Notes: generated by a model from the letters alone, not told the origin. Shown: positions 12,767 to 57,964, counted from the first letter of the stretch. The stretch is DNA of 64,000 bases from a virus (IMGVR_UViG_3300021603_000005:64001-128000), one strand, 5' to 3'. Translations and numbers: made by a program.

Positions 12767-15454
12767 ATGAGTAAAAAACGATTATTGTTTGTTGGTGAAG
12801 CTAGCTATCTAGCTACTGGTTTTTCTACATACTGGAATGAAGTTATTAAACGCATTAACGCAACCGGTAGGTTCGAGGTAGCGGAATTTGGGTCGTATGC
12901 TAGCGATTCAGATCCAAGAAATCAATGTGTTCCATGGAAGTTCTACCCCAACGCACCAGACCCCAATGACCAAGTAGCCAATCAGGCGTACCATTCGAGA
13001 CAAACAAATCAGTTTGGCGAATGGAGATTTAGCGATGTGCTGTTAGATTGGAAACCGGATTGTGTTTGCGTTCCTCCAGGAACAAATATTGAAACGCCGC
13101 GTGGTCCTGTGCCTATAGAAAACATTAAAGTTGGTGATTATGTTATTAGCCACAAAGGGGTTCCCAGGCGAGTCACCAAAACCATGCGAAGGCAACACGT
13201 TGGGGATATCTCTAATATCTATATTTTTGGTGACAACAGAACATATAGACTCACCAACGAACATCCTGTTTTAGTGATAAGGAGTAAAAAGCGTACATGG
13301 AAAGAGCGAGATGTTCGACAAAGGCATTTTGCTAAAGATGCAGAGTTTATACCAGCATCTAAAGTTGGGGTAAATGATTATGTTGTTATTCCAATATATA
13401 GTGGACATAAAATAGACAACATCAATCTGAAGAATCACCTATCGCAATTTGTTGAACTAGACAATAGACTATACCCTGTTGGACATAGGGATTGTACCGA
13501 TTTTTCATTACCAAGCCAACTGGATATTACGCAAGATTTAGCAAGATTCTTAGGATATTATTGTGCTGAGGGAAGTGTTAACCGAGGCAGTATAGAACTA
13601 TGTTTTGGTTTCTATGAAAATAAATTTGTGGACGACGTATTATCTTTGGGAAAAGAGTTGTTCGGATTAACTGGTGTTGCAACAGCAAATAGGGATCGTG
13701 GAAATAGAACGGTACGATTTTGTTCTATATTATTGTCCAAATTCATGGAATCGATATGTGGCCGCGGCGCTCACAATAAAGTTGTTCCTGATTGTATCTA
13801 TCAAAACAATAATTGCGATATTGTTAAAGGATTTTTGACTGGATTTATTCGTGGTGACGGAACATACAAGTACGATACTGTATCAGCCACTACAGTGTCA
13901 AAAATCATGGCACATCAAATCAGACAATTATCCCTACGGATAGGGGTAAGAACATCAATAAAATTCAGAAAAAACAAAGGAAGTAAGCTGGTTCCTGGAA
14001 CTGGGCCGTCGTATGATATTGATGCGTATGGTGGACACGCCCGCAATATGCATAGAATTGTGCAAAAGCACGAGGAATTGCCGACAAGAATACTCGATGA
14101 TCCGAAACACTTAGATAAGGCGGGGAAAGGCTGGATTGATGAGAATTATTTATTACTTCCCGTGCGGAGAATTAGAAAAACACAGTATCGTGGACAGGTA
14201 TATAATCTTGAAGTCGAAGAAGATAATAGTTATGTAACGGGGTTCGCTGTCCATAATTGCCAAATTCGCGATTTTTGGATGGATGAGTTCGTACTAAGAT
14301 CCCCTCTTAGGAGTAACTTCAAGGTCATTTGGATGCCGACTATAGACGGCGCACCCCAACGCAAGCTATGGGTAGACACATACAAGCAGTGCGATGCGAT
14401 AATGACATATTCCCAATGGGGCAAAGATCTGCTTGAAAAGGAATATGACATAAGAGTAACCGCCGTGGCATCCCCTGGTGCTGAACTAGATCTATTCAAG
14501 CCCGTTCCAGATAAAGGGGCGCATAAAGCCAAACACGGGATAGACCCTTCGTCGTTCATTATTGGTACGGTGATGCGAAATCAAAAACGCAAGCTGTATG
14601 TAGACTTGATAGAAGCGTTTGCTGAATGGCTACGCTCGTCAAAGAAAAGTTCCCATCTAGATATTGCGAAGAAAACGTATCTGTATCTACACACCAGCTA
14701 TCCGGATGTAGGGTATGATATCGGTGACGCAATACAAAAGTTCAAAGTTGGCAACAAGGTATTGATGACGTACCTATGCTCTGCTTGTGGAACTGCATAT
14801 CCATCGTTCTTCTCCGGAGAATGGGCGCACTGTCGAAGATGCGGTAAACTAGCGGCACATCCGCCAAATGCAAATCATTCTGTTGGTAGAGATGTTCTTG
14901 CCAGCATATACAATATCTTTGATGTGTATGTACAATATTCCATCTGTCTACATCCAGATACGCCAATATTACTTAGTGATTACACACACAAACGAATAGC
15001 AGATATTAAGTCCGGAGACCAAATCGTAAACGGGAATGGCGATGTTGTCAAAGTCAACTGGTGTAAACAGACTAATGATACGTCATCTACTGTTGAGATC
15101 AAAACATACGAGAATGATAAGCCGGTTATAGTCACACACGACCATCGTGTTTTGACAATGAATGAAAACAATGAGCTAGTATTTTTGGAAGCGAAAGATC
15201 TTCAGGATAAATGGGTGGTTTGTCCAATCAACAATGCAAAAATCTTTGATGCAATTGGGGTGTGTAATCCAAAAAGAAATAGTAAACACAGAAAGAAGCA
15301 TAAGAATTATCTGCTAATTAAAGTCAAGTCGGTTAAGCAAAGCAACTACACTGGTCCAGTTTACGACCTTGCAGTCGTTTCACCGAAAGGGGGTGATGCC
15401 AACTCTCGCAGTTTCGTTGCGAACCATTTCGTAACACACAACTGTGAGGGTTGA
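12767..15454 (+). CDS. GT-B (GT4-like) glycosyltransferase, N-terminal part, with two inteins
   Basis: GEASYLATGF..Y, IGTVMRNQKRK, LYLHTSYPD and YNIFDVYVQYSI|intein|CEG. A TGA falls inside the E-G-x-G-x-P-x-x-E motif. Confidence 0.85.
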   Translation: MSKKRLLFVGEASYLATGFSTYWNEVIKRINATGRFEVAEFGSYASDSDPRNQCVPWKFYPNAPDPNDQVANQAYHSRQTNQFGEWRFSDVLLDWKPDCVCVPPGTNIETPRGPVPIENIKVGDYVISHKGVPRRVTKTMRRQHVGDISNIYIFGDNRTYRLTNEHPVLVIRSKKRTWKERDVRQRHFAKDAEFIPASKVGVNDYVVIPIYSGHKIDNINLKNHLSQFVELDNRLYPVGHRDCTDFSLPSQLDITQDLARFLGYYCAEGSVNRGSIELCFGFYENKFVDDVLSLGKELFGLTGVATANRDRGNRTVRFCSILLSKFMESICGRGAHNKVVPDCIYQNNNCDIVKGFLTGFIRGDGTYKYDTVSATTVSKIMAHQIRQLSLRIGVRTSIKFRKNKGSKLVPGTGPSYDIDAYGGHARNMHRIVQKHEELPTRILDDPKHLDKAGKGWIDENYLLLPVRRIRKTQYRGQVYNLEVEEDNSYVTGFAVHNCQIRDFWMDEFVLRSPLRSNFKVIWMPTIDGAPQRKLWVDTYKQCDAIMTYSQWGKDLLEKEYDIRVTAVASPGAELDLFKPVPDKGAHKAKHGIDPSSFIIGTVMRNQKRKLYVDLIEAFAEWLRSSKKSSHLDIAKKTYLYLHTSYPDVGYDIGDAIQKFKVGNKVLMTYLCSACGTAYPSFFSGEWAHCRRCGKLAAHPPNANHSVGRDVLASIYNIFDVYVQYSICLHPDTPILLSDYTHKRIADIKSGDQIVNGNGDVVKVNWCKQTNDTSSTVEIKTYENDKPVIVTHDHRVLTMNENNELVFLEAKDLQDKWVVCPINNAKIFDAIGVCNPKRNSKHRKKHKNYLLIKVKSVKQSNYTGPVYDLAVVSPKGGDANSRSFVANHFVTHNCEG
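13067..14257 (+). mobile_element. Intein with LAGLIDADG homing endonuclease (397 aa)
   Basis: Starts CVPPGTNIETPRG; block B LTNEHPV; LAGLIDADG blocks LGYYCAEG and FLTGFIRGDG; ends VYNLEVEEDNSYVTGFAVHN followed by Cys+1. Exteins rejoin as KPDCV-CQIRDFWM. Confidence 0.93.
14945..15442 (+). mobile_element. Mini-intein without endonuclease (166 aa)
   Basis: Starts CLHPDTPILL; block B VTHDHRV; ends YTGPVYDL...SFVANHFVTHN followed by Cys+1. Confidence 0.92.
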
Positions 15455-16159
15455 CTAGGCTGGGGTATGCCGATCACCGAGGCTATGGCGACATCGTGTC
15501 CCGCAATGGTTGTAAATTATTCTGCTATGGAAGATCATGCAAAAATGCCGGGTGGTATTCCAATTAATGTTGAAAGGTTTTTCTACGAAGCAGTAATAGA
15601 AACAGAACAGCGCAGAGCGCTACCTAGCAATAAACATTTTGGCGAACAATTAACCCGCATTATAAAGATGAGGCCAGAGCAAAGGACAGAACTGGCAAGA
15701 CGAACACATGAGTATATGGTTGAACCAGCGGACGTATTTGGTCAAACAGAAAAACTACCGCGATTTGGATACGATAGAACAGCGGCAATATGGATGAATG
15801 TTATTGATTCCATAGGGGTGTTAGATAGGTCTAAGACATGGGATAGAAAGGAACCGAACTACCGGGTTCCAGACCTAAAAGCACCGAATAGGGTGATGAG
15901 CAATACCGAGTTTGTGAGGTGGGCTATAACTAGCATTATGCGTAGGCCGGATCTTGCCACATCGTTCATGGCAAATGAATGGATCAGGTGGTTGAATTGT
16001 GGATTTAAGATAGAGGGAAACCAAAGGGTTCCGTGTGATCGAAATACCATAGCGAACATGGCTATACAGATTGTTAACGAATATAACGGTGCCGAAAAAA
16101 TGAGGGCGGATAGCTTGGTTGCTCGAAACAATAGCGAAATTGGGTTCACGGTGTTGTAA
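15455..16159 (+). CDS. GT4-like glycosyltransferase, C-terminal continuation in the same frame as 12767..15454
   Basis: After the TGA the same frame reads LGWGMPITEAMATSCP, completing the EGxGxPxxEA motif. First ATG is at 15467. Confidence 0.8.
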   Translation, partial: LGWGMPITEAMATSCPAMVVNYSAMEDHAKMPGGIPINVERFFYEAVIETEQRRALPSNKHFGEQLTRIIKMRPEQRTELARRTHEYMVEPADVFGQTEKLPRFGYDRTAAIWMNVIDSIGVLDRSKTWDRKEPNYRVPDLKAPNRVMSNTEFVRWAITSIMRRPDLATSFMANEWIRWLNCGFKIEGNQRVPCDRNTIANMAIQIVNEYNGAEKMRADSLVARNNSEIGFTVL

Positions 16160-17352
16160 TGCGTGTACTGTATATATCTGTCTATAAGGATGGTACCGGT
16201 TATAGTCATGCTGCGATAGAAACTATCTTGGCGTGCGAAAGGGCCGGAATCGATGTCGTATGCAGACCAATATCTATGTCCCCGATGAACGGTATTGATG
16301 ATGCCAAACGAATTCAACACCTAGAATGCAAACCGCTAAACAACGTTGATGTAGTCATACAGCATTCGCTTCCACACACATTCGAGTATAAGAGCGGCGT
16401 TAAAAACATAGGGGTATTTAGCTGGGAAACAACGCATTTTAGAAATTCAACATGGGCAGAGCATTGCAATCTGATGGATGAGATATGGACATCATCTATT
16501 GTTGCAAAGCAGGCTATTATCAATAGCGGAGTAACAAAGCCTGTGCGAGTTATTCCTATCCCATGTAATGCGAACAAGTACAGTAGCACAACAAATCCAA
16601 TAGCACTTCCTGGCAAATCGAACCAAACCGTATTCTATACGATAGGCGAATATACCAGACGCAAAAATATCGTCGGAGTCATTCGATCATATTTTCATGC
16701 CTTTACGCCAGACGACAATGTGGTTCTGGTAATAAAAACATCCTTCCCTGGAATAAAGGATAACGCAGCACAACAACAGATCTCGCAAATAGTTGACGAT
16801 ATCAAAATGTCAACACATATCTATCAAAACCCAAGGGATTATCCACCAATCATAGTTATTACGCGACGAATGTCTGATGAACACATAGGACAACTTCACA
16901 AATCCGGTACGTTTTTTGTGTCTCCGTCTCACGGAGAGGCGTGGTGTATTCCAGCCATGGATGCGCTTGGTTATGGCAATCCTGTTATAGCATCTAATTG
17001 GGGTAGTTTCCCAGAGTTGCTAATGGATTTTGATAACGCCAAGAAATTCTTCGATCCGGACAGTATGTCATTTGAATATCCAGGAGATGTTCCTGGCGGC
17101 TACCTAATCAAAGGACAACTATCCCCATGTTTTGCTCCGGACGGTGGATTTAACGACCTGTACACAGGCAAAGAAGAATGGTTCGAGCCAAATCTGTGCC
17201 ACCTATCTAATATTCTCCGTCGTGCATACGACATTCATCAATGCCAACCAGATGTATTTGCCCAAAAAAGAATCAGTGCATCTATGCGAGCAAGGGCATT
17301 TGATCATGCTAGTGTTGGCGATAGAATAAAGTTGGCACTGACACAGGAGTAG
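16159..17352 (+). CDS. GT4-like (GT-B) glycosyltransferase
   Basis: GTGYSHAA, FSWET, FYTIGEYTRRKN, FVSPSHGEAWCIPAMDALGYGNPVI. Confidence 0.88.
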   Translation: MRVLYISVYKDGTGYSHAAIETILACERAGIDVVCRPISMSPMNGIDDAKRIQHLECKPLNNVDVVIQHSLPHTFEYKSGVKNIGVFSWETTHFRNSTWAEHCNLMDEIWTSSIVAKQAIINSGVTKPVRVIPIPCNANKYSSTTNPIALPGKSNQTVFYTIGEYTRRKNIVGVIRSYFHAFTPDDNVVLVIKTSFPGIKDNAAQQQISQIVDDIKMSTHIYQNPRDYPPIIVITRRMSDEHIGQLHKSGTFFVSPSHGEAWCIPAMDALGYGNPVIASNWGSFPELLMDFDNAKKFFDPDSMSFEYPGDVPGGYLIKGQLSPCFAPDGGFNDLYTGKEEWFEPNLCHLSNILRRAYDIHQCQPDVFAQKRISASMRARAFDHASVGDRIKLALTQE

Positions 17353-17354
17353 AA

Positions 17355-18326
17355 ATGCCCACACAGATATCTAGAATACTAAGGTGTGTTAATAGGGATC
17401 TTGATAGACCCCTAAACATCCTGTGTTCTCCAACTCACGAAGCATATGAAACAATGATATGTAAAACCGGCCATAGGTTCTATTCTTTACAACATCCGAA
17501 TCTAAAACAATGGAACTGTAGGTCTAGGCCATATCCGGCCAACTATCAACCCATAAATCATAACGCCCTACCGCACGATGTTGTTTTTGATGTGGTGCTA
17601 TCTCAAAGCAAGTGGGGGCAGTTTCAGATTCTGGGGCAAATTGCTCAGGCACTGGGATGTCCATTGATTCAACTAGAGCATACCGTTCCCATACAGGGGG
17701 TAAACGAACAGCAGATTAAACAAATGAAGGGTATGAAGGGCACTGTAAATGTGTACATATGTAAATGGTCTGCTGATCAGTGGGGAGATAATGCGGGCGT
17801 TGCTATAGAACACGGAATTGACACAAACGTATTTTGCGGATGGAACGGCGCTATAGGCGGCGTTTTATCAGTGGTCAATCAGTTTAGAGAACGAGATAGT
17901 TTATTGGGATTTTCTCTATGGAAACATGTGACGAACGGATTACAGACAAATCTTGTTGGCAATAATCCTGGTTTGTCTCAGGAAGCAACGAGCACAGACG
18001 ATTTGGTAAATAGATACAGAACAGCGGGAGTGTTTTTGAATACGTCGTTGCAGTCAACATACCCGATGGCTATGATAGAGGCTATGGCCGTTGGGTGTCC
18101 CGTAGTATCAACACCGACATGCGCTATCCCAACTATTATCCAAGATGGCATTAACGGAATGCTTGGCTATACCCCGGAAGAATTGCGGTCCAAGCTTGAG
18201 TTGTTACTAAGAGATAAGGGGCTAGCTCGAACCATAGGAGAGGCTGGACGACAAACTGTACTGCAACGTTTCGGTGAATCAAGATTTATCGAAGACTGGA
18301 ACAATCTGTTTCGAGCATTATCATGA
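17355..18326 (+). CDS. GT4-like (GT-B) glycosyltransferase
   Basis: HGIDTNVF, FLNTSLQSTYPMAMIEAMAVGCPVVS, IQDGING, IGEAGRQTV. Confidence 0.88.
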   Translation: MPTQISRILRCVNRDLDRPLNILCSPTHEAYETMICKTGHRFYSLQHPNLKQWNCRSRPYPANYQPINHNALPHDVVFDVVLSQSKWGQFQILGQIAQALGCPLIQLEHTVPIQGVNEQQIKQMKGMKGTVNVYICKWSADQWGDNAGVAIEHGIDTNVFCGWNGAIGGVLSVVNQFRERDSLLGFSLWKHVTNGLQTNLVGNNPGLSQEATSTDDLVNRYRTAGVFLNTSLQSTYPMAMIEAMAVGCPVVSTPTCAIPTIIQDGINGMLGYTPEELRSKLELLLRDKGLARTIGEAGRQTVLQRFGESRFIEDWNNLFRALS

Positions 18327-19168
18327 AATTCAGTATAGTAATGTCGTATTTTCGGCGACCCCAATTGCTTTGTAGAACACTGGAGTCTATTCATAGACAA
18401 ACCAATAAGCCATGTTACGAAATTATCGTCATTAACGATGATGTCAGCGATACTACAAGAGATGCAGAACTAACGGAAATATGTCGTCTTTACAAAGAAA
18501 GAATGCGATGCGATATAAGGCTGTTTATCACCGGGCGCACAACCCCGTGTCGTGGACCTGCATTACCATGGAATATTGGGGCTAAATTTGCAAGTGGCGA
18601 TATTCTAGTAATTCAGAATCCAGAATGTATGCACGTAGGGTGCGTATTAGATAATCTTAGAGCGATATTCGAATCACGCGCAAACCAGTATGTGTCTGTC
18701 AGGTGCGTATCGCTTAAACCGAATGATGATGTGGTGATAGATGCGTGTAACGCCGGATTGTTAGACTACAACAAAATACGTGAATTAGATCATCCGGCAA
18801 GACAGGAATATATTGGGCCTACAAATCCCCGATTGCTATATTTCTGTGGAGCGTTGCCGCGACAATTGTTCTATGATATAGGCGGGATAGAGGAATCGTT
18901 CGTCAGGCTGGCATACGAAGACGACTTCTTTATTTACACAGTACAGAAGAATAATATACCAGCGAATATCGTGGGTAATAAAGAGTGGTATGTTATGCAC
19001 CAATGGCATCCGACCTATTTGACTAACGAGTACTGGTCGGCATTACGTGAAAGCCAGGGGCATTACAATTTGTTGTTACGACAGATAAACCAAAACCAAA
19101 GATCTCCAATTGCAAATCTAGGAAGGCAATGGGGTGAGTTGGGTTCTGGACACGAGGTCATACTGTGA
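18323..19168 (+). CDS. GT2-like (GT-A) glycosyltransferase
   Basis: FSIVMSYFRR, EIIVIND, NIGAKFASGDIL, IGGIEESF..LAYED, HQWH. Confidence 0.85.
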   Translation: MKFSIVMSYFRRPQLLCRTLESIHRQTNKPCYEIIVINDDVSDTTRDAELTEICRLYKERMRCDIRLFITGRTTPCRGPALPWNIGAKFASGDILVIQNPECMHVGCVLDNLRAIFESRANQYVSVRCVSLKPNDDVVIDACNAGLLDYNKIRELDHPARQEYIGPTNPRLLYFCGALPRQLFYDIGGIEESFVRLAYEDDFFIYTVQKNNIPANIVGNKEWYVMHQWHPTYLTNEYWSALRESQGHYNLLLRQINQNQRSPIANLGRQWGELGSGHEVIL

Positions 19169-19986
19169 TAACAGAAAACGACTTTGACTGGTCTGTTACA
19201 GAAAGAGATATCGTTATCGTACTGCCTAGTGTTGGCAGAAAAATCCAGCTTATTCCTGGATTAAAGAGGCTGATTACGACAACGGCGTTGCCAAAAGAAA
19301 ACTGGCGTGTCGTTGTTATGAACAATTGTTGCCACGAGGATTTATCAGACCTACAACATCTTAACTGCTCGTATTTCACACTGTCAAAATCATTGCAAAC
19401 TAATTATCTGAACGGAGGATACGCGCGAAATTATGTCCTCAAAAGACTTAGATCAAAGCGCGTAATATTCCGTGACGCTGAAATTTTTCACGACGGGGAT
19501 TATCTATCGTATGCCAATCAATTACCAATAGGTACTGTTGGCGAATTATTTGCAGCTAATCAGGTATACTATAATGGCATAGTTGGTGGCGTATCAGTAA
19601 CCGCTAGTCCAGAGGCCACTAGGGCTATCATAGATAACCCAATGGTCGATTTGCCAACGATAGCTAGAATATTCCGAATGAGATCGTATGAGGGAATGAA
19701 TGGCTATGGTTGGATTGCCCCAACTAAACTACTACAAGAAATGCGAGGTTTCGACGAAGACTTTGACGAATGGGGCATGGAGGATTCTGACATATTTGAC
19801 AGAATCAAAGCGAGTGGCAGACCAATTATACATATGCCCCAGGGGTATCCTGTATACGCTACCCATTTGTTTCATCCACCGGCACCTTTCCCGTCTGGCA
19901 AGGCGTGTAGGATATATAAAGAGAAAGACCCTGATCAGTTGATTAGAAACCCCAATGGCTGGGGGGAGTGGAAAACATGCGATTGA
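19165..19986 (+). CDS. GT2/GT7-like (GT-A) glycosyltransferase
   Basis: ARNYVL, FRDAE, RGFDEDFDEWGMEDSD (galactosyltransferase-type WGxED), HLFH. Confidence 0.83.
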   Translation: MITENDFDWSVTERDIVIVLPSVGRKIQLIPGLKRLITTTALPKENWRVVVMNNCCHEDLSDLQHLNCSYFTLSKSLQTNYLNGGYARNYVLKRLRSKRVIFRDAEIFHDGDYLSYANQLPIGTVGELFAANQVYYNGIVGGVSVTASPEATRAIIDNPMVDLPTIARIFRMRSYEGMNGYGWIAPTKLLQEMRGFDEDFDEWGMEDSDIFDRIKASGRPIIHMPQGYPVYATHLFHPPAPFPSGKACRIYKEKDPDQLIRNPNGWGEWKTCD

Positions 19987-20450
19987 ATCTTGGATGTGGG
20001 AGCGATATTCGTACCGGTTTCACCAACATAGATGTGGCACAACAACAACTACCGCTAGGTCTATATCGACAGGGAGACGTTTCGAACCTTGATTGGCTAT
20101 GTACCAATAGTTCTGTTGAGGAAATGCTGGTTCTAAATGTGCTACAATATATTCCATACAAGGTTATGGATCAAGTACTATCAAACTGGGCCAATAAGCT
20201 TTGCAATAATGGATGTATAAAGATCCTGTCGCCAGACATAAACATACTATGCAAGTTATTCAGTAGTCGCAACATGGATCTGACAACGTTTTCGGCTAAT
20301 GTATTTGGTTCGCAAGATCAAATTGTTAACTTTGGAAAATCAGCAACCGACATGAAAGACATATGTCGACAACTAGAATCACTAGGACTAAAGGTAGTGA
20401 TTGCCAGATATGAAAACACAATGTTTTATGTAGAGGCTATTAAACCATGA
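19977..20450 (+). CDS. Class I SAM-dependent methyltransferase-like protein
   Basis: RLNLGCGSD..GFTNID motif I; VLQYI; GCIKILSPD. Likely start is ATG 19977 after GGAG. Confidence 0.75.
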   Translation: MRLNLGCGSDIRTGFTNIDVAQQQLPLGLYRQGDVSNLDWLCTNSSVEEMLVLNVLQYIPYKVMDQVLSNWANKLCNNGCIKILSPDINILCKLFSSRNMDLTTFSANVFGSQDQIVNFGKSATDMKDICRQLESLGLKVVIARYENTMFYVEAIKP

Positions 20451-21190
20451 AGCTTTGTACGCCATGTCAGTCGTGTAGCTTTTTATCAAAAGAGGGTGGC
20501 GGGTGCCTGCTGAATCTATATTGCTGTACATCAGATGATAATGTAACATACGCCCCAGGTTGCTGTAGGTTCTTTACAAGAACCAAGTTTCCAGATATAA
20601 CAACCGCAGTTCGCCACATGAAACAGGCAATGAGTTTTGACTACTCATTGGTTGTATGTTTCGATAACAAGGTACATAGCCTGGACGATCTGCGCAGAGT
20701 ATTTCGCAAGAGCGTTAAATATACCAATATCGTGGTCGTTGATATGTCTGCGACATCCGATCCCAAAGAGTTGGTAGAATTGTCACGACATTGCGTAGCC
20801 AACTCTTGTAAGTATAATGTCGTTATTCCCACAGAACCAATAGTTGCTAACGATCAGTTGGTTAGACTGGCAATGCCCAGCATAACACAGAACTACTTTG
20901 TGGTGATAGACGCCAACGAGTATATCGACATTGAAACACACAAGAGCGTTGTCGCAGAAACTAATCAGAACTCAAGATTCGTTCGCTGGGACTTTGGAAA
21001 AATACAGGGCAATACCCTGATCTTTTCACAGGCATCGATACGTGGCGTATACATAACATCGTTTTATAGAGAGATGATGTGCGGAGAGGAAAGATCTTTT
21101 AATTCTGTTGTCCGTGAACTTGAATCAGATAGTGGCATCGGCTTTATCAGACAATTGATCGGCCCGATTAACACGGTAGATAGGACGTAA
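20447..21190 (+). CDS. Hypothetical protein with Cys-rich N-terminus; possibly a degenerate GT-A fold
   Basis: Cys cluster in the first ~42 aa; later IVVVD and YFVVIDA strands resemble GT-A. Confidence 0.5.
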   Translation: MKLCTPCQSCSFLSKEGGGCLLNLYCCTSDDNVTYAPGCCRFFTRTKFPDITTAVRHMKQAMSFDYSLVVCFDNKVHSLDDLRRVFRKSVKYTNIVVVDMSATSDPKELVELSRHCVANSCKYNVVIPTEPIVANDQLVRLAMPSITQNYFVVIDANEYIDIETHKSVVAETNQNSRFVRWDFGKIQGNTLIFSQASIRGVYITSFYREMMCGEERSFNSVVRELESDSGIGFIRQLIGPINTVDRT

Positions 21191-21191
21191 T

Positions 21192-22443: not shown

Positions 22444-22444
22444 A

Positions 22445-25177: not shown

Positions 25178-25200
25178 ATATAGTTACCTCCTTTGTCTTT

Positions 25201-25208
25201 TTATACAC
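25201..25208 (-). promoter_or_regulatory. Putative late promoter GTGTATAA
   Basis: Recurrent motif upstream of the 204-aa gene RBS. Confidence 0.6.
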
Positions 25209-25214
25209 TTAATA

Positions 25215-45402: not shown

Positions 45403-45403
45403 T

Positions 45404-47384: not shown

Positions 47385-47389
47385 TGAAG

Positions 47390-47950: not shown

Positions 47951-47958
47951 ACTCCTGT

Positions 47959-48318: not shown

Positions 48319-48328
48319 TTTAACCTCC

Positions 48329-51300: not shown

Positions 51301-54300
51301 CGTTTGAATTACCCGATGGCGGCAGTTCTACCCCGCTGGTTTGAATACCATGGTTGATCCATGTAGTGCCGTCTAGTGACGTGCGCAGATTCCATATACC
51401 ATCGCCAGAGTGTTGTATATCTACAATCAAAAAGTGTGGTTGACCATTATTGATGGTTGACAATAATCCTGATAATTCAGGAGTATTCCATTCAACGGTA
51501 TTCGTTCCAAAACGAATCTTATTATCTAGTAATTGTATTTTGACATCTCGTTCAACCCAGAATGTAGAACCACTGATAGATGGATTTTTACTCCATAACA
51601 TGAGCATGAATTGTTCTTTGTCTATTGCGCTTTGGTACTGGTTGCTGTCTTGTGCTATTAAGGCACCAGATAATCCTGCATATATCCAGCCAACATGTAA
51701 GCGATTGTTAGGTAAACTAGACACAACCCCATATGCCGCTCTTTCTTCCCCCACATTAACAATATGTGGTCTAACAGATATTGGCCATGATATTGGTAGA
51801 TAATTACCAACGCTAATTATCCCGCTTACTGGGTCAAAATTAACACATGTGGCTTCAAACCCAACGGCACTGGACGAATAACCAGCGTAGATTGCTCTAT
51901 TATTTGATAGTGTGGCCACGTCATTGCTAACGCCAGGGGCCGGTGTTTCCTGTGTTGGGTCTAGAATTGGGGTGATGGTTAGTCCAGACACATCTATTCT
52001 TAGTGGCTGAAACCACACTGGATATGTTTGCGTTATAGTGCCCGGCTGGCATTGACTATTGAGTATGGTATTATTATTGAGTCTACATATTCCGTAATAC
52101 AATTCAGTATATGCTTCCGTATCTACCTGTCTTCCAAATAGGCTATTTCCGGAAACGCCAATTACATCTTCGCTTATTGTGCCTAGTTGGGCAATAGCAT
52201 ATCCCTGAGCCTCAGACTGCAATACGGTATTGTCACACCACGATAAATATAGTTGTCCATTATTATATATCGGAGACATTCTCCAACATGGTGAATACGT
52301 TGATGACGAATATTTGTTATATGCATCAATAGTTGTCTGCGTTGGAGAAAATGTAATCGTATCTCCGCTAACATTAGCTATTATTCCAACAAAACCAGAT
52401 CCTTGCACGCCATAATTTCGAGACCCAAAAATAGCCAATCTATTATTGTCAAGAGATATCGCATTTAGATTCACCATAGACGAACTCGTAGTCCCTGTGT
52501 CAAAAGTATTTCCACTACCACATGATAAGGATGTTCCACTCACAGTCAATAAACAATAGCTTGCTTGTCCATCTGCATTGTTATAGAACACAGCGAATTT
52601 ATCTGTGTCGATATTAACGATTTTTTGTGTCCAACTATAATTATCAGAACGACCACTGCTATACGTGATCGGAGAAGAAAAGCTCATAGAAAGTCCACTG
52701 ACCGATGCATATGTCGCCTTTAGTTTACTAGAGTCGGTGGCGTCATTATAACAAATAATTGCACCAGATATGCCGTGGTTTATCGTTGTGATGAATTTTG
52801 GTGCATTTGATGTAAACACTGATAAATTACCAGAAATCGGTAGTGAATCTTGTATGGCAATAAATCGACAAACACCAGCGTTGTCACTAAGTCTTCGCCA
52901 CACAAATAATGCGCCACCGGGATCTAGTGGCGATACAGTTGGGTAACCGGCCCTGTCGTCAGTACCTCCCATTGGTTCTGCTGACAACAACCCAGACGTG
53001 ATTACCGAAATTCCATTTTGACCATTCCTAAACCAATACCATTGATGAGATGCAAGTGTCGCATTGAAAGTCACAAAAGATGTGTCATCTATCTTACACA
53101 TCAGGTTGTCTGGGATAGTTCCATCATAACTTGGCGATCCATAAAACCCATACCCCATGTCTAGATTAGAATATTGTGTTGATTCTGGTGGATTCGCTAA
53201 AGTAATTCCGGTACTAGTTAACAATACTGGTACGTATGCATTTTTATTGACGGTATTAATTTTGTGCGGATATGCCCATATTCCGCTACCACCACCAAGA
53301 TTTAGTAAATACGAATAATAACAAGTAAGCGGCATGGAATAATCTCTAACATCTCGTCCATAGGTAAACGAATTATCGTCGTTTAGTCGCACGACGTTCA
53401 TTCTATTATGTCTTCCGTGACATACAACAAAATGGCTGTCGTCTATTTTGGTTATAACTGGAAGAGTTTGACCATAATTCCAACCATTATATGTGCCTGA
53501 TGCTCTACCTGTAACATACATTCCAGATGTTGTATAAAGATAAATATTGGTTTGATTTGTTGAATTTAAGAACGAAGCGACTATGTTTTGTTCATATCCG
53601 CCAGAAGCCCTTAAGCAAATTGTATTAAATGGATACATTCTTATGCCATCAAAAGTTGTCGGATAAAATCTTGTTCCAGATGTAATACTAAGATCTGGAT
53701 TCATTTTAACAACAAACGCATAATTGCCACCACCAAATGATGACAATGAAAACGCTCTGTCATCACCCAGCGACGATAAGCTAAAGCATGACGCGGCGGT
53801 AAGATTTGTGTTTAGCTCGATTCCGCTTGTGACGATACCACCTGATGCGGCAATGCCCATCCATTTATGCTGACTTCCGCCTCCGGTTAGTGTAATAGCC
53901 CTATCTGTGTCTGTCGGCGATATTCGAATATATGGCACCGCATACGTAACGCCTATTCTAATTGCTCCGGAGGATGGTATAGAAAAATTTTGAGATAAGT
54001 CAAAAGAAAGAGCACCACTAACTTGACCATCAACAAATGCTCCTGGACCATACCATTCTTGTTTTTTAATCCATTCCTTTTTATCATCAAGTGGGTGATA
54101 AAAGATAGCGCCACTTATTTCGTATGGTAAATCCTGTGCTTTTACTAAACATGTTAGCTCGCTGGTAATTTGTGTTGGTCCATATACCGTCATTGGTACA
54201 ACGCCACTGTAGTTAATTTCAATTGCATCAGTATACGAACTTAGTTGTAAGCCACTACCAGCTAATCCGTACATCGACACTGTTTGATAGTCGGTAAATC

Positions 54301-55999
54301 TTGGTGATGTAAACCATATCGTGTTTTCATCAACCCAACTACTGAGAGTAGACGATCTATTCGTGTAGCTCAATGGGGTGTTGTTATTTACGATTGGCGT
54401 GTATCCTGTATCCTGTATGCCGTGTGATACGTATCCGCTTCCGTCTATCGATGTTTCAAGATTCCATGTTCCACCACTAATATGAGAAAAATACATAGAT
54501 AAAAAGTGTTTGTTTCCATCGTTTAGTTGACCCAACAAATAACTAATTGAAGTGTCGTTCCAATAAGATACCGCAGTTCCAGAACCAAGCGTAATGTGTG
54601 TTGGAATAATGCCTACGTCATATCCTCGACTTACTTCTGTCCTGGAAGACCCCGCTGACGGGTTCTTGTACCATCCGACGACAGCTATCCCGCTTTGGCC
54701 AATAGCCGATTTTGGAGAAGAACTAGTCGACATAATTTTGGCTTCGCGTACAATATTTCCGACGCATAGTCTTCCAATATTATTGGAATCTATACTTCCA
54801 ACAACGAATTTGTCTCCGTCACATTTAGCTATTAGCGTGTCATTGCACTCAAGAGGATAAAACGTATCTGGATGAGACCAATATACTAGATTGCCTATTG
54901 AGTTAGTTTGTCCAACAGAAACAGAACCATATGTCTTTTGAAAGCCCACGACAACGGTGTCGTTATCTATCCGTATAATAGATGGCTTTGAAAATAAATT
55001 GTACGCATATGCTATCTGGGTGTAAGAAGTATCCCACGATAAAGAGCTACCAGAAATCACACCCCTTCTTGACGCACCATGAGGCCATGTTCCAGCAAAT
55101 TGTCCACGATACCAAGTAACCAGTATTCTATGGTCTCCACCAATAGTCGAGCCTATGGTTGATATAGCCACGTTAGATACTGGGCCAGACGAATCAAATG
55201 TGGTTGCACTTCCCCACGATACGACATTACCAACTATGGTGCCAACCTTGGTTTTTCCACTATTTCCAGTATTGCTATCTGTATATGCAACTATTACCTG
55301 GGACGCAGTTGTCGATGTAATAGATATGTTGGTGGCTATACTGGTAGATAAAAAGTCCGTGACTGCACCAAATGAGATATTCGTTCCATCGAATGTTCCA
55401 ACACGAGCCTTGCCGTGTTCGCTATCTGCGTTATCTTTATATACAACAACAAAACCACTGGAATGGATTTTGGTAACATCCATTGCGGCGAAATTACCAA
55501 ATGAAGAATAAAACTCTGCTGAATTACCCGGTGTTATACTAGTACCTGAAATAGAACATATTTTTGCTAATCCATGTTCGCTAGCTGACCCATCTTGATA
55601 ACAAACAATTGCAGTAGATGCAGACAGTGCCAATACTTTAATCTGGGATGCCGCACCAGCACCTAGAAATGTAGCTGTCGAACCAAAAGAAATTGAATCT
55701 CCAGTAATGGTCCCAACGACCGCCTTTCCATAATTATTATCACTACTATCGGCGTAACAAACTAATATTTTGTTTGTATCCAACTGGCATACCGAGGCAG
55801 AAGATATTGTTCCTGATCCAAATGTTGTCTGGGCACCAAAGTATGTCCTTGCGCCAGCACCAAGAAACGACTGGGCTAAAACGCCAGATCCAAACGCAAT
55901 AGCACCGCTTAGTGCTATGTTATTTTTGTGATCGTATGGACCAATTGCCCCGTCAAACCGAGCATATGATACGCAGTCGTTAGCTCTAAGCAATGCCAT
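48329..55999 (-). CDS. Giant modular virion fibre/adhesin (LamG-like modules plus beta-propeller repeats)
   Basis: 2556 aa, rich in S/G/T/Y. About five LamG-like modules ending in a DE-x-x-x-W-like motif, and ~50-aa blades IV.Y.D....GKA.VGT..G..ISFG. Confidence 0.75.
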   Translation of the reverse strand: MALLRANDCVSYARFDGAIGPYDHKNNIALSGAIAFGSGVLAQSFLGAGARTYFGAQTTFGSGTISSASVCQLDTNKILVCYADSSDNNYGKAVVGTITGDSISFGSTATFLGAGAASQIKVLALSASTAIVCYQDGSASEHGLAKICSISGTSITPGNSAEFYSSFGNFAAMDVTKIHSSGFVVVYKDNADSEHGKARVGTFDGTNISFGAVTDFLSTSIATNISITSTTASQVIVAYTDSNTGNSGKTKVGTIVGNVVSWGSATTFDSSGPVSNVAISTIGSTIGGDHRILVTWYRGQFAGTWPHGASRRGVISGSSLSWDTSYTQIAYAYNLFSKPSIIRIDNDTVVVGFQKTYGSVSVGQTNSIGNLVYWSHPDTFYPLECNDTLIAKCDGDKFVVGSIDSNNIGRLCVGNIVREAKIMSTSSSPKSAIGQSGIAVVGWYKNPSAGSSRTEVSRGYDVGIIPTHITLGSGTAVSYWNDTSISYLLGQLNDGNKHFLSMYFSHISGGTWNLETSIDGSGYVSHGIQDTGYTPIVNNNTPLSYTNRSSTLSSWVDENTIWFTSPRFTDYQTVSMYGLAGSGLQLSSYTDAIEINYSGVVPMTVYGPTQITSELTCLVKAQDLPYEISGAIFYHPLDDKKEWIKKQEWYGPGAFVDGQVSGALSFDLSQNFSIPSSGAIRIGVTYAVPYIRISPTDTDRAITLTGGGSQHKWMGIAASGGIVTSGIELNTNLTAASCFSLSSLGDDRAFSLSSFGGGNYAFVVKMNPDLSITSGTRFYPTTFDGIRMYPFNTICLRASGGYEQNIVASFLNSTNQTNIYLYTTSGMYVTGRASGTYNGWNYGQTLPVITKIDDSHFVVCHGRHNRMNVVRLNDDNSFTYGRDVRDYSMPLTCYYSYLLNLGGGSGIWAYPHKINTVNKNAYVPVLLTSTGITLANPPESTQYSNLDMGYGFYGSPSYDGTIPDNLMCKIDDTSFVTFNATLASHQWYWFRNGQNGISVITSGLLSAEPMGGTDDRAGYPTVSPLDPGGALFVWRRLSDNAGVCRFIAIQDSLPISGNLSVFTSNAPKFITTINHGISGAIICYNDATDSSKLKATYASVSGLSMSFSSPITYSSGRSDNYSWTQKIVNIDTDKFAVFYNNADGQASYCLLTVSGTSLSCGSGNTFDTGTTSSSMVNLNAISLDNNRLAIFGSRNYGVQGSGFVGIIANVSGDTITFSPTQTTIDAYNKYSSSTYSPCWRMSPIYNNGQLYLSWCDNTVLQSEAQGYAIAQLGTISEDVIGVSGNSLFGRQVDTEAYTELYYGICRLNNNTILNSQCQPGTITQTYPVWFQPLRIDVSGLTITPILDPTQETPAPGVSNDVATLSNNRAIYAGYSSSAVGFEATCVNFDPVSGIISVGNYLPISWPISVRPHIVNVGEERAAYGVVSSLPNNRLHVGWIYAGLSGALIAQDSNQYQSAIDKEQFMLMLWSKNPSISGSTFWVERDVKIQLLDNKIRFGTNTVEWNTPELSGLLSTINNGQPHFLIVDIQHSGDGIWNLRTSLDGTTWINHGIQTSGVELPPSGNSNAQIFMSPKREYAPSIWLDEVYLYAGPKGIDLNTFEIEKAYSLGAVKHIGLDRYGDSPASITGSMDVFLKSACPFISSSGAVFYQTYERYFDASSSGNAHEHILGEGWIPSTPSMAAFTSGVAGSGGLQTANGSLYWYEPSATTQRDRLYDGQDYTFVTWWDCNRGAGVSNDYVGVGQNSPPYHGIVVQSSGLSGFVLVAKINNTEYPITTHLIDTQKSKVFVAGRIEFNPTELIGLLSIDGSPWVSGSTPYVGTRNNVSTRYGVSTYIAPGPDRTCMVDETILWKNIDRFSAYELNALYMLGLQGLTIACNSADGFDPVEVDAWAPLFIGSLSKNSEVPLYITGPKCPIAFSGLIYYHECSADNLEWVKGKEWSLSGAIHVPYFINEGISVSGGDTGFYSYVDTDYQDPRDLCNLTSLCWISGVQYSPVTCDFGWFSGIIPVNSVGFQTVGSGVGFILNSSGVSWSSGTYYALQYNPTLALARTEFSGGVATSLLSIDGNPWVDMGQISISTFDSSGNIIGAKLSQAHPSGELNADEIALWGNIDRFTPYELQQLYYLGMHLRKPLYEFHDIFDGSGLHIETYCPLFIYHSEITSGNCDLFIDGKNTCYNSIDLSIPWFTSYSGIPYPLNAIYAHPLNDLREKIIDVDWSGVVAGFVDSDSVSGLRPSSAIGSSSGYPSTIGAGTLTWHMTALRPIDSGLYISTGRGYTLTTTKEYGSPSYIYLTNSTSSGIASWYNTEITNLFDSLEGSKGRCIVFEFTHITDGNWWLRMSTDGKPYVDYGLQNSGICPLSTIDADPYIEVSGSYMSAWLDDTIMWTNINLTSDDLQQFCHGASGYIDYMTLFMQGTHLSASSDIDLFVSGYVLPPSGASGVYDFTIENLFKTMDYNPQIIGKLDCPASGSVYIEVWYCTDGNNDIVEIINSGCYPIGNTGRWGWSTAYLPEPWPSLKPQYYYRMTASNTNTFEGQFFMNTNMNRNRMPRNSSEYTLNI

Positions 56000-56013
56000 T
56001 TGCGGCCCCCACT

Positions 56014-56394: not shown

Positions 56395-56401
56395 CACCTT
56401 G

Positions 56402-56409
56402 TTATACAC
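56402..56409 (-). promoter_or_regulatory. Putative late promoter GTGTATAA
   Basis: Directly follows the T-run of the capsid terminator. Confidence 0.6.
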
Positions 56410-56440
56410 AAAAAAAGACCCACCATAATTGATGGGTCTT
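56410..56440 (-). terminator. Intrinsic terminator after the major capsid gene
   Basis: Minus strand AAGACCCATCA-ATTA-TGGTGGGTCTT followed by a T-run. Confidence 0.85.
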
Positions 56441-56470
56441 TCTTAACTACCTAGTTAATTTATGATTAGA

Positions 56471-57478
56471 TTAGAAGCTGCCCAGTAATACGCGCCGTTC
56501 ATCTAGGCATGCAAAACCGGCTTCCATCCAGCCATAAAGTCCAGCCCTGCGTCGACGATGCAATGCGGGATCTTCGAATACCGACAGGGGCTCTTTCACC
56601 GGCATAACGAACGAATCGTTCTTGCTCAGGTCAAGACCAACCACAATTTCGGTATCAGAGGTACCCATAGAACCACCAAGAACGTCGTCGAAGTAGTTCT
56701 GGAATTCCTGATCCTCGCCCAGTTCGTCGATATCGTGAAGATTTACGCCGTAGATCTGGCTAATCATGCCATCTCGTGCGGTGAAGATTTCTCTACGAGT
56801 CACGTCATCAACTTCGTCTTCGTCCCAATCGCGAATATCCTCAAGTGCTTCTGGCGAGATATATAGGTCAGTTAAACGACCACGATTTTCTGACGCAGAG
56901 TTGCCACCAGCAGTACGCCGCATACTGGTCTTCATGAGACTAACCAGTCGCTTGGTAAACTGTCCCGCAGCAGCAGCATTATCATAAATCAAGATCCCGC
57001 GACCAACACCGGCGGCTAGCAAAACTCTCCAGCCATCGGTATTGAGTTTCTTAACAAAACCGGCTTCGAGAACTTCCATGGCACGAGCCACGATATTCCA
57101 GCGAGCCTGACGACTATATTTCAACAGCCAGTCAATCGCATTGCCGATATCATATGTTTGTACGGTTACCAAATCGCCGCCAATATGTCGCTGTGGAACA
57201 GCGCCTTCTTGGGGTAGCGAATAAGCAACATAGTCGTTTTCCATTCCTGGTTGATAAAAGTCCAGTGGATATTCTGCGGTAGCACTTGGATCAAGATTCT
57301 CTACCGTAAAAATGTCACTGAAAATATCGCCAGGAAGGATACCTTGACGCAAAGGTTCCTCTAGTGCCTGGGCCAACGCCCGCATAGCATTGACAGCCTC
57401 AGCCTGATCTTGCGAGCCAGTGGCTTTCAGGAGGGCGGTCATCTTTTCGTCTGGCTTAATAATTTTGTTGTCTTTCAT
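56471..57478 (-). CDS. Major capsid protein (HK97 fold)
   Basis: 335 aa; follows the protease and decoration genes; strong RBS and terminator; C-terminal GLYGWMEAGFACLD..RV pattern typical of HK97-fold capsids. Confidence 0.85.
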   Translation of the reverse strand: MKDNKIIKPDEKMTALLKATGSQDQAEAVNAMRALAQALEEPLRQGILPGDIFSDIFTVENLDPSATAEYPLDFYQPGMENDYVAYSLPQEGAVPQRHIGGDLVTVQTYDIGNAIDWLLKYSRQARWNIVARAMEVLEAGFVKKLNTDGWRVLLAAGVGRGILIYDNAAAAGQFTKRLVSLMKTSMRRTAGGNSASENRGRLTDLYISPEALEDIRDWDEDEVDDVTRREIFTARDGMISQIYGVNLHDIDELGEDQEFQNYFDDVLGGSMGTSDTEIVVGLDLSKNDSFVMPVKEPLSVFEDPALHRRRRAGLYGWMEAGFACLDERRVLLGSF

Positions 57479-57493
57479 TGGTTTTCCCTCCTA

Positions 57494-57964
57494 TTATAGA
57501 TCAACAAAGACCTTAACGAAACCATCTGGATCTGCGGTCGTTTCGAACTTGCCAACGACGACTGAATAGCTACCTGAGGGCATCTCAGTGGCAAAGTACC
57601 CGCTGACCCCCAGATATGCATCGCCGCCTGCTGTTGGTGTGCCGGTGATCATATCGGTCACAACCCAGCCCTTCCTAATCAGGCAGACCTTTTCGCCTGG
57701 AAGGACTTCGCCATTGTCAAAGTTCCGATGGAACCTTGTGGTTGGTGTGTACACAGCAACATCTGCTAGCATCACACCCTTGGGGACAGCACCTGACGGA
57801 TCAGCAGCGTATTCTACTACGTTGTTCGTATCGTCGAGCGATACGCCTGATCCGGCTGTAACCAGACTTGCACAGCCGCCCTTTTCTACTGTTGCGGCGG
57901 TATCAGTCCAGAAAAAGCTGATGTCATCCATCGCATTGTAATCGCGATCTGGTTTTAGAGCCAT
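57494..57964 (-). CDS. Capsid decoration/cement protein
   Basis: 156 aa directly upstream of the capsid gene; GEKVCLIRKGWVVTD, PTAG..AYL...G, VGKF....DPDGFVKV (beta-tulip-like). Confidence 0.7.
   Translation of the reverse strand: MALKPDRDYNAMDDISFFWTDTAATVEKGGCASLVTAGSGVSLDDTNNVVEYAADPSGAVPKGVMLADVAVYTPTTRFHRNFDNGEVLPGEKVCLIRKGWVVTDMITGTPTAGGDAYLGVSGYFATEMPSGSYSVVVGKFETTADPDGFVKVFVDL

Follow-up and report, generated by a model that had tools for sequence, protein, structure and literature searches.

Gene Content of the Window

The DNA analysed here comes from an uncultured phage with a 143-kb genome, and "the window" denotes the whole stretch of 64,000 nt under study (IMGVR_UViG_3300021603_000005:64001-128000). 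It holds a group of glycosyltransferase (GT) genes and a set of virion protein genes (Table 1).

Table 1. Glycosyltransferase and virion protein genes, with positions counted from the first letter of the window.
Feature	Position	Strand	Evidence and remarks
Core GT4-family glycosyltransferase	12767..16159	+	phrog_2170; Intein, Hint and LAGLIDADG domains
Second core GT4 (397 aa), soluble	16159..17352	+	PF00534 2.6e-8; phrog_2170 5e-21
Third GT4 (323 aa)	17355..18326	+	PF00534 7e-14
GT2 glycosyltransferase (281 aa)	18323..19168	+	PF00535 3.7e-8
GT-A-type (GT2-like / Glyco_transf_7C) protein (273 aa)	19165..19986	+	PF02709 5e-7
Two small GT2-like candidates (247, 234 aa)	20447..21896	+	ESM Atlas features 0.93-0.98 to PF00535 clusters
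Distal tail paralog pair (204, 213 aa)	24563..25856	-	SG-rich; common motifs GSG, PSG, GSGD
1375-aa protein, directly after tape measure gene	30958..35085	-	Four ConA-like jelly-roll repeats
Tape measure protein	35098..40995	-	PHROG tape-measure families
Tail tube, duplicated-domain T5 pb6 / P74-26 type	43381..44430	-	AF2 pLDDT 79.9; Foldseek E 7.5e-10
Head-tail / neck region proteins (307, 245, 419 aa)	44479..47384	-	307- and 419-aa proteins moderately SG-rich
2556-aa giant protein, between capsid and connector genes	48329..55999	-	ConA-like domain array (HMM pieces)
Major capsid protein	56471..57478	-	phrog_2522; SG 0
Capsid cement / decoration protein	57494..57964	-	PF22758 Phage_cement

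The stretches 12767-15454 and 15467-16159 form a single GT4 gene which is broken by two inteins and carries an in-frame TGA three codons past the second of them (reading HN|CEG*LGWGMPITEAMA). G001 shares this TGA, while other relatives have a single ORF of ~555 aa. Both this gene and the second core GT4 have orthologs in 13/13 genomes, and the pair adjoins the replication genes for SSB, DnaE and DnaB. The third GT4 occurs in 10/10 newly tested records of nearer relatives that are at least 90% complete and was not found in G008, G010, G012 and G015-G017. By its BLAST distribution, the GT2 is restricted to the G000/G001 lineage. The two small candidates gave no HMM match and are leads only as GT2-like proteins; the one at 20447-21190, for which the Atlas, unlike for 21192-21896, has a model, also shows structural similarity to GT2 models (TM 0.56-0.61). 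The original prediction had counted about eight GT-like genes and a methyltransferase, and had proposed a possibly methyl-capped glycan. About seven GT-like genes lie in the window, five of them supported by HMM matches and two more being the Atlas-based candidates. No methyltransferase was detected there, one marginal Methyltransf_25 ORF being located ~8.7 kb past the window end, and a methyl cap finds no basis within the window.

Among the virion proteins, the tail tube model matches solved major tail proteins in Foldseek (8xan, 7.5e-10; P74-26, 1.3e-8; T5, 1e-7) and in this respect resembles T5 pb6-type tubes. The repeat of the 1375-aa protein (AF2 pLDDT 90.9) matches lectin-like jelly rolls, CBM66 and pentraxin (E 4e-8 to 2e-6) and, like ConA-like lectins and Laminin_G_3, folds as a ConA-like jelly roll; its end motif DEVxLW...FT..EL..LY presumably resembles a typical LamG_3 C-terminus. 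Short repeats of x-S-G-x-IDL-F type make up the C-terminal part of this protein, and two domains of the ConA-like array in the 2556-aa protein are split by large inserts. Neither giant protein has a match in Pfam, including PF13385 (Laminin_G_3), and the three head-tail or neck region proteins have no family match.

Ser-Gly Excess in Outer Virion Proteins

An excess of the dipeptide Ser-Gly (SG) in outward-facing virion proteins is confirmed as real, restricted to the outer proteins and clade-wide. Across three separate virion-protein sets the ratio of observed to expected SG (O/E) is 2.0-2.9, and of all dipeptides with three or more expected occurrences, SG is the biggest positive outlier in each set (z 8.0, 8.0, and 5.4). 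The corresponding ratio for the non-structural ORFs (29,425 aa) is 1.10. The initial hand counts of SG were all exact on recount, and the per-protein ratios bear out an enrichment of the outer virion proteins beyond what composition or codons provide. The 1375-aa protein contains 53 SG and 21 GS (18.6 SG expected, shuffle z 9) and the 2556-aa protein 76 SG and 33 GS (31.3 SG expected, z 9.5). The tail tube has 8 SG in 349 aa against 2.3 expected (p 0.001) and no TG against 3.8 expected; the paralog pair has 8 in 213 aa (3.2 expected) and 7 in 204 aa (2.6 expected), the 156-aa decoration protein 4 (1.0 expected), and the 307- and 419-aa neck-region proteins 5 and 9 (2.4 and 3.5 expected). Unrelated folds of one virion share the excess, namely the T5-type tube, the ConA-like jelly roll, the cement protein, the repeats of the fibre and the pair of paralogs. 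It is not seen in the tape measure protein, which serves as an internal control (12 SG, 12.6 expected), nor in the capsid, portal, protease and non-structural proteins of the genome; the major capsid protein (MCP) has 0 SG (1.4 expected), the protease 0, the portal 2, and DnaB and DnaE 3 each.

The enrichment is directional, as the reverse dipeptide GS lies at ~1.0-1.2. GS, GG and PG are not elevated in the virion sets, NG and DG range from 0.4 to 1.5 and are in no case outliers, and TG is depleted (0.36-0.58). Ser is favored over Thr before Gly, with SG:TG ratios of 55:14, 53:4 and 76:12 (p 1e-5 to 1e-7, relative to composition), a bias which inner and replication proteins do not show. Furthermore, the triplet S-G-hydrophobic occurs 86 times in the outer proteins against 27.7 expected, while its O/E is 0.9 for the inner proteins and 1.07 for the non-structural ones. 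SG is encoded by all six Ser codons (TCN and AGY) and all four Gly codons, and the signal is therefore not a DNA motif but resides at the amino-acid level.

Position and Conservation of Ser-Gly Sites

The placement of the sites bears on the possibility that SG is purely structural, forming tight turns or strand entries in the all-beta domains of the lineage, and was inherited and multiplied as domains were duplicated and modules passed between tail and fibre genes. SG would then be unread and the GT cluster would have another purpose. The four repeats of the 1375-aa protein contain 40 SG, 25 of which fall into seven columns common to at least three repeats, and due to these shared columns the sites are not independent; after masking of the seven columns, 15 SG remain against 8.8 expected (O/E 1.7). 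About half of the SG excess of the two giant proteins lies in conserved columns of the ConA-like jelly-roll repeat domain, where family-wide motifs include GxxxSG (41/60), WxSG (33/60) and NGSGW. In both AF2 models SG is located at strand ends and hairpins, with one tube site within a beta strand. Where the Ser of SG is replaced, T, N or D takes its position, all of them suited to turns. At conserved tube columns SG and TG interchange, the two being equally frequent in distant relatives. Also in line with a structural role, combined [ST]G is as frequent in the small outer proteins (1.34) as in the replication proteins (1.30).

A structural role alone is at odds with several observations. The excess persists at non-conserved columns, where SG O/E is 1.84 in the ConA-like family and 1.17 in the tube family (0.4-0.9 for other dipeptides). 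The loop dipeptides GS, GG, NG, DG and PG are not elevated alongside SG, the same folds in other lineages lack the excess, and common ancestry cannot account for its being shared by unrelated folds in one virion. We regard a purely structural origin as an unlikely but serious candidate, nearly as likely as the glycosylation reading discussed below.

Distribution Across the Clade and in Control Proteins

The clade comprises at least 297 IMG/VR contigs with lengths of about 130-190 kb. The structural block exceeds the rest of the genome in SG in 13/13 genomes, 59 further loci have a mean O/E of 1.67, and overall the excess recurs in ~95 related IMG/VR loci (mean 1.4-1.7). The ConA-like family, whose 111 representatives are metagenomic or viral sequences only, has an SG O/E of 2.35. 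By contrast, LamG_3 domains from bacteria, which belong to the same fold superfamily, have no SG excess (0.97) and are rich in NG (2.32) and DG (2.04), and the values for T5-like phages with the same tube fold (1.15) and for T4/T5/lambda virion proteins (1.25) are likewise low; this set of controls is small, covering three groups of coliphages and the LamG_3 domains of five bacterial genomes, among which paralogs are common. Since LamG_3 domains use NG and DG and T5-like phages lack the excess, a fold-typical beta-turn preference, considered from the outset as a possible sole cause, was not borne out.

The dipeptides used in its place raise the idea that long-lived extracellular virion proteins avoid Asn-Gly and Asp-Gly, which are prone to deamidation and isomerisation, and use Ser-Gly instead. 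NG is indeed below the rest of the genome in the structural block of 12/13 genomes, with values of 0.38 for the 2556-aa protein and 0.39 for the tube family, and bacterial LamG_3 has NG or DG where the phage family has SG. However, the 1375-aa protein (1.47) and the small outer proteins (1.03) show no shortage of NG, this genome shows none of DG, and T5, T4 and lambda virions retain NG. Chemical stability would also leave the preference of Ser over Thr unexplained, and we consider it improbable as the cause.

Glycosyltransferases, Sugar Supply and Their Possible Targets

GT4 matches are present in 21/22 relatives, and GT4/GT2 matches in 0/5 T5-like phages. None of the sufficiently complete relatives lacks the core GT4 genes, and the co-occurrence with SG excess therefore amounts to a comparison of one clade with one control clade. 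Across relatives, SG excess does not follow the variable GTs, which fits an unread structural motif: the SG/TG ratio is high in G017 and G021, which do not have the third GT4, and low in G006 and G013, which do.

Elsewhere in the genome (50584-53403), consecutive ORFs form a nucleotide-sugar cassette (PF01370/PF16363, PF04321, PF02350) in which a 4,6-dehydratase/epimerase, an RmlD-like reductase and a member of the UDP-GlcNAc 2-epimerase family are adjacent. This arrangement matches the pattern of UDP-2-acetamido-2,6-dideoxy-L-hexose pathways of FnlABC / CapEFG / WbvBRD type, and the product is likely a UDP-6-deoxy-HexNAc-type sugar.

The GTs and the cassette may never act on virion proteins and may instead modify the DNA of the phage or the envelope glycans of the host, for instance to evade defences or to exclude superinfection; we give this a chance just short of even. 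It is a statement about the GT cluster and overlaps with the structural, stability and other-reader explanations of SG. The core GT pair lies beside SSB, DnaE and DnaB, the cassette is similar to O-antigen pathways, and DNA-glycosylating phage GTs are well documented (PMC13326640; bioRxiv 10.1101/2023.12.21.572611). Yet glycosylation of 5hmC, 5hmU or 5hoC bases requires a ThyA homolog, or a C5-MTase plus TET/JBP (PMC13326640), and PF00303 (ThyA-like), PF00145 (C5-MTase) and PF12851 (Tet/JBP) are all absent from the genome. The genome is also devoid of the lipid-carrier and export families PF02397, PF00953, PF01943 and PF04932 (Bac_transf, WecA-type, Wzx, Wzy), that is, of the initiating phosphoglycosyl transferase, flippase, polymerase or ligase of an Und-P-linked or O-antigen type cluster. 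Moreover, all GT-region proteins, the second core GT4 included, lack TM segments.

A reader of SG other than the GTs, such as a chaperone for fibre assembly or some different post-translational modification of Ser, would produce the same lineage-specific pattern across folds, and the surroundings of the tail genes are rich in ORFs without known function. Neither an enzyme nor a chaperone emerged as a candidate, the GTs being the sole conserved modifying enzymes detected, and such a reader appears a poor prospect.

Ser-Gly as a Putative Glycosylation Site

The SG statistics, protein distribution, clade spread, negative controls and enzyme inventory are observations, while any action of the GTs on virion proteins, and the role of SG as acceptor, are inferences. 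That SG marks sugar-attachment sites for the soluble GTs of the phage is the single best reading of these sequences, although a tentative one. The excess lies at the amino-acid level, is directional and restricted to outer proteins across unrelated folds, and is absent from the same folds elsewhere. It is clade-wide, persists at non-conserved columns, and comes with a preference for Ser over Thr and with stronger conservation of the Ser in SG (93.5%) than of other Ser (85.2%, p 0.0025). The reading is also favored by the soluble GTs and sugar cassette in a genome free of export genes and of a DNA-hydroxylation route, by the distribution of GT4 among relatives and T5-like phages, and by the TibC/AAH precedent described below. 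Against it stand the third GT4, which does not track SG, the conserved motif columns, which fit a structural role, the MCP without SG, the frequency of TG in distant tubes, and the in-frame TGA in the core GT4. The sequon proposed in the original prediction thus gains from the exclusion of composition, codons and fold-typical turn preference as causes and from the presence of glycan machinery, and loses from the lack of tracking by variable GTs and the SG-free MCP.

Under the glycosylation reading, Ser-Gly(-hydrophobic) would be maintained by lineage-specific selection at loop-to-strand junctions of outward-facing, all-beta virion proteins, namely the tube, the ConA-like array following the tape measure, the giant head/neck fibre, the distal tail paralogs and the cement protein. 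The cause would be a phage-encoded, trans-acting reader of SG, in that the conserved pair of soluble cytoplasmic GT4s may O-glycosylate Ser on folded or folding virion proteins prior to assembly. In this lineage, the glycan might then be lengthened by the extra GT4/GT2 enzymes using the phage-made UDP-6-deoxy-HexNAc-type sugar. The complete scheme, in which a large uncultured siphophage clade with T5-type tubes coats tail, fibres and capsid cement with Ser-Gly(-hydrophobic) O-glycans by means of a soluble GT4 pair, and one lineage adds GT2/GT4 extenders and a 6-deoxy-HexNAc sugar, is slightly more doubtful than the sequon itself.

Comparison with Known Systems

Mycobacteriophages reportedly O-glycosylate their virions by phage-encoded GTs, as described by Freeman et al. 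in Cell Host Microbe in 2023. The phage studied here is likewise a tailed phage with its own GTs (PF00534, PF00535, PF02709, phrog_2170), and modification in the host cytoplasm is again proposed for capsid-associated proteins and the tail tube. It differs in belonging to another, uncultured clade with a T5-type tube, in having far more GTs plus a nucleotide-sugar pathway, and in its proposed acceptor, a Ser-Gly loop motif that is scattered over many proteins and missing from the MCP.

The soluble cytoplasmic GT-B enzymes TibC/AAH heptosylate many Ser, but not Thr, on the repetitive beta-rich adhesins TibA/AIDA-I, with one mapped Ser in an N-S-G-G context (PMC4358343). The phage offers a parallel in its SG:TG bias, a statistical proxy for acceptor preference, and in its adhesin-like candidate substrates. 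Conversely, the phage GTs are GT4/GT2 (the GT9 heptosyltransferase family PF01075 gave no match in the genome at E 0.1), the candidate substrates have jelly-roll, tube and fibre folds rather than a beta-helix passenger, and the sugar is likely a HexNAc derivative and not a heptose. If SG is glycosylated, the clade would possess a Ser-specific system with a "structural sequon", analogous to TibC/AAH and built from different enzymes.

Virus-encoded rare-sugar pathways also serve fibril and capsid glycosylation in Megavirinae and chloroviruses (PMC10117803; PMC9614988). Synthesis of a 6-deoxy-HexNAc-type sugar, several soluble GTs without host-type export, and virion-surface targets are shared features, the sugar type and the targets being predictions in the case of the phage, whereas the giant viruses infect eukaryotes, their proteins are unrelated, and their acceptor motifs are different or unknown. 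Finally, Ser-Gly is the sequon of eukaryotic proteoglycan xylosyltransferases. By analogy only, the phage motif shares the pattern of a putative Ser-specific acceptor followed by Gly, and it differs in that the flanks of SG in the outer proteins of the genome are not acidic.

Genome Context and Relatives

According to IMG/VR, the source record of the window is complete (143,428 bp with direct terminal repeats). Among 50,697 isolate phage records, no cultured relative was found by DNA or by capsid protein, and the portal protein gave only remote matches. Searches with the tail tube protein identified 36 relatives at first and, once an alignment was used, matches in 297 IMG/VR stretches, of which 80 were kept. 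Whole-genome comparisons cover 13 genomes, i.e., the present one and 12 whole or near-whole relatives.

Features of the phage genome (window coordinates unless marked genome)
Feature	Position	Strand	Description
Replication module	within window	+	
Glycosyltransferase region	12767 to ~24250		
GT4 gene	12767-16159	+	12767-15454 and 15467-16159 form a single gene; two inteins with LAGLIDADG/Hint domains
Next GT4 gene	16159-17352	+	
Third GT4 gene	17355-18326	+	
GT2-like candidate	20447-21190		ESM Atlas features and Atlas structure
Whole virion module	24563 to window end	-	
1375-aa protein	30958-35085	-	directly after tape measure; four repeats of ~280 aa (mutual identity ~40%) and C-terminal short x-S-G-x-IDL-F-type repeats
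Tail tube, 349 aa	43381-44430	-	duplicated-domain tube of T5 pb6 / P74-26 type
2556-aa protein	48329-55999	-	giant fibre
HTH / sigma-70 region 4-like protein	56014-56409	-	small; between capsid gene and giant fibre gene
Cement protein, 156 aa	57494-57964	-	phage cement family member
Terminase large subunit ORF, 1102 aa	62211-64000 and past window end (genome 126211-129519)	-	Hint + LAGLIDADG intein inside
Early region before window	genome 30141-31382, 44091-44849, 44957-46438, 46982-48507		two amidoligase_2 proteins, BrxL-like ATPase, tyrosine recombinase, ClpP-like protease
Sugar cassette	genome 50584-55051 (L140, locus handle: 10584-15051)		13.4-9 kb before window start; consecutive genes for epimerase/dehydratase, RmlD-like reductase, UDP-GlcNAc 2-epimerase, GT4-like protein
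Methyltransferase-like ORF	genome 136732-137322		~8.7 kb past window end, outside GT cluster

Ser-Gly Excess in Outer Virion Proteins

The original prediction proposed the dipeptide Ser-Gly (SG) as the sequon for a phage-built glycan coat on the virion, and every one of its SG counts was reproduced exactly on recount. Given its own serine and glycine content, the 1375-aa protein contains 53 SG where 18.6 are expected (z 9 from 1000 shuffles); the corresponding figures are 76 and 31.3 for the 2556-aa protein (z 9.5) and 8 and 2.3 for the tail tube. The tape measure (12 vs. 12.6), capsid (0), protease (0), portal (2 vs. 2.3) and all replication proteins lie at or under expectation, and the observed/expected ratio (O/E) for non-structural ORFs (29,425 aa) is 1.10. 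When all dipeptides expected three or more times are compared, SG ranks as the top positive outlier in each giant protein and in the set of 13 smaller virion-module proteins. The signal sharpens when a hydrophobic residue follows: S-G-[ILVFMWY] occurs 86 times in outer proteins against 27.7 expected, compared with O/E values of 0.9 for inner proteins and 1.07 for non-structural ones.

The shuffles rule out amino-acid composition as the cause. Across the virion sets, the reverse dipeptide GS stays at ~1.0–1.2, GG and PG are not raised, TG is depleted (0.36–0.58), and NG and DG range from 0.4 to 1.5 and are outliers in no set, which excludes a general segregation of loop residues or an X-Gly turn preference. 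Selection for avoidance of NG and DG, which could likewise leave SG in excess, appears improbable. The signal resides at the level of protein rather than DNA, since SG is encoded by all six Ser and all four Gly codons in about background proportions; the use of six Ser codons, together with the absence of bias in inner genes of the same strand, argues against a motif in the DNA, a codon-pair effect and a bias between strands, all of which are dismissed.

The controls, which are limited to three coliphage groups and LamG_3 domains, show little of this excess. Virion proteins of T4, T5 and lambda have an overall SG O/E of 1.25 with no single protein past chance, and 30 T5-like structural loci analyzed with the same pipeline have 1.15 (range 1.0–1.3).

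Folds and Repeats of the Ser-Gly-Rich Proteins

Neither giant protein is matched by Pfam models. Repeat 2 of the 1375-aa protein is predicted to be a ConA-like lectin jelly roll (AlphaFold model, pLDDT 90.9), and Foldseek retrieved lectin-like jelly-roll subdomains, CBM66, pentraxin and a GH43 accessory domain (E 4e-8 to 2e-6), a resemblance of fold only. The 2556-aa protein carries five to six copies of the same domain, two of which are split by inserts of ~370 and ~780 aa (HMM pieces 421–589, and 629–665 with 1446–1619), while its N-terminal ~55-aa repeats look like a candidate beta-propeller. K-mer protein searches with the 1375-aa repeat and a LamG_3 segment returned essentially no homologues, and P0034 and P0056 were absent from IMG/VR.

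Part of the excess is inherited with the repeats. In the four repeats of the 1375-aa protein, 25 of 40 SG fall in seven columns common to at least three repeats (FTSG, IGSG, SGTTS, WTSG, ASGD, NGSGW and SSG), and masking these columns leaves 15 SG against 8.8 expected. A profile of the repeat identified 111 representatives among 1.8 billion proteins, with an O/E of 2.35 for SG, 1.2 for GS and 0.84 for TG; conserved columns of the family include GxxxSG (41/60) and WxSG (33/60), and with conserved columns masked SG remains at 1.84 while all other dipeptides tested lie at 0.7–1.1. Repeat inheritance thus lowers the statistical weight from z ~9 to ~3 per independent domain, and the SG effect remains.

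These conserved sites bear on the reading of SG as a purely structural motif. As read from DSSP positions, SG is mostly placed at strand ends, hairpins and loops in the models of both the repeat and the tail tube, with one conserved tube site within a long strand, and about half of the SG sites look structural. However, a turn preference intrinsic to the fold should recur in the same folds elsewhere, which it does not, and common ancestry cannot account for the same bias across unrelated folds in one virion. Overall, a purely structural origin is rated only slightly less probable than a glycosylation acceptor, and both stand below even odds. The idea that the LamG_3 fold is intrinsically SG-rich is not supported: 30 genuine LamG_3 domains, taken from five bacterial genomes and many of them paralogous, have O/E values of 0.97 for SG, 2.32 for NG and 2.04 for DG.

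Serine Over Threonine Across the Clade

In the small outer proteins, combined [ST]G (1.34) is not above that of replication proteins (1.30), and the difference lies in the choice of Ser over Thr. The two giants have SG:TG ratios of 53:4 and 76:12 and the small outer proteins one of 55:14 (p 1e-5 to 1e-7), as opposed to 21:24 in inner and 21:18 in replication proteins. Between this genome and its relative G001, the Ser of SG is kept in 93.5% of cases and other Ser in 85.2% (p 0.0025), with replaced Ser of SG becoming T or N. Conserved columns of the tube alignment hold SG in some members and TG in others, with an almost complete shift to Ser in this genome and its nearest relatives (tube TG 0 vs. 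3.8 expected). As a separate observation, TG is ~2- to 2.8-fold over-represented genome-wide in the relative G015 (IMGVR_UViG_3300034107_000314; loci L033, L095–L102), in structural as well as non-structural ORFs.

The SG O/E of the structural block (1.27–1.96) exceeds that of the rest of the genome (1.02–1.23) in every one of the 13 genomes. All 13 encode large SG-rich virion proteins of differing families, e.g., a Pfam LamG_3 protein in the relative G017 and a beta-roll protein in the relative G010. A further 59 tube-centred loci have means of 1.67 for SG, 0.99 for GS and 0.96 for TG.

Glycosyltransferases and the Possible Role of the Motif

Since the same folds elsewhere lack the bias and unrelated folds of one virion share it, the pattern suggests a lineage-specific agent. 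The only candidate agent found is the set of conserved soluble glycosyltransferases (GTs); that something else reads SG seems a rather remote prospect. Five GTs were identified in the window by HMM, and two further GT2-like candidates, both by ESM Atlas features and one of them also by structure, are leads only. No GT-region protein has a transmembrane segment, and PDB sequence searches with the core GTs gave generic GT4 matches only. The first two GT4 genes occur in 13 of 13 genomes, the third in each of ten additional complete relatives, and PF00534 matches in 21 of 22 relatives, including all eight that are at least 90% complete. T5-like phages gave no GT4 or GT2 matches.

Of the readings weighed, we tentatively and by a narrow margin favour SG as a possible glycosylation acceptor, at less than even odds. 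A precedent exists in TibC/AAH, which carry out Ser-specific, structure-directed hyperglycosylation of beta-rich adhesins in the bacterial cytoplasm (PMC4358343). Several findings weigh against it, namely the lack of any GT-less relative, the natural negative control, among sufficiently complete records, variable GTs that do not covary with SG (no clean link for the third GT4), the structural look of half of the sites and a capsid protein devoid of SG.

Independently of the role of SG, the chance that the GTs instead serve DNA or host-glycan modification approaches an even one. All described glycosyl-DNA pathways start with ThyA homologs, Tet/JBP or C5-MTase (PMC13326640), none of which was found in the genome. 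Phosphoglycosyl transferases, flippase and polymerase are likewise missing from it. The sugar cassette, present only in this genome and G001, would by its layout encode a UDP-6-deoxy-L-HexNAc-type pathway. The sole class-I SAM methyltransferase-like ORF found is a marginal match (Methyltransf_25, 26.5 bits), and no FkbM-type enzyme was found.

If SG is indeed an acceptor, virion glycosylation would be no peculiarity of actinobacteriophages but widespread and sequence-predictable in large environmental phages, with a short motif countable in any genome. It would bear on their host range, recognition by antibodies or predators and particle stability, and provide a simple tag-and-enzyme pair for protein glycosylation. 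If SG is not an acceptor, the virion proteins still display a strong dipeptide bias, specific to the lineage and independent of fold, for which current structural rules give no explanation.

Further Features

The first GT4 gene contains an in-frame TGA three codons past its second intein (HN|CEG*LGWGMPITEAMA), which is conserved in G001; in more distant relatives the gene is a single ORF of ~555 aa with no interruption. The TGA may reflect recoding, readthrough or a pseudogene. The HTH / sigma-70 region 4-like protein may be a late-gene regulator.
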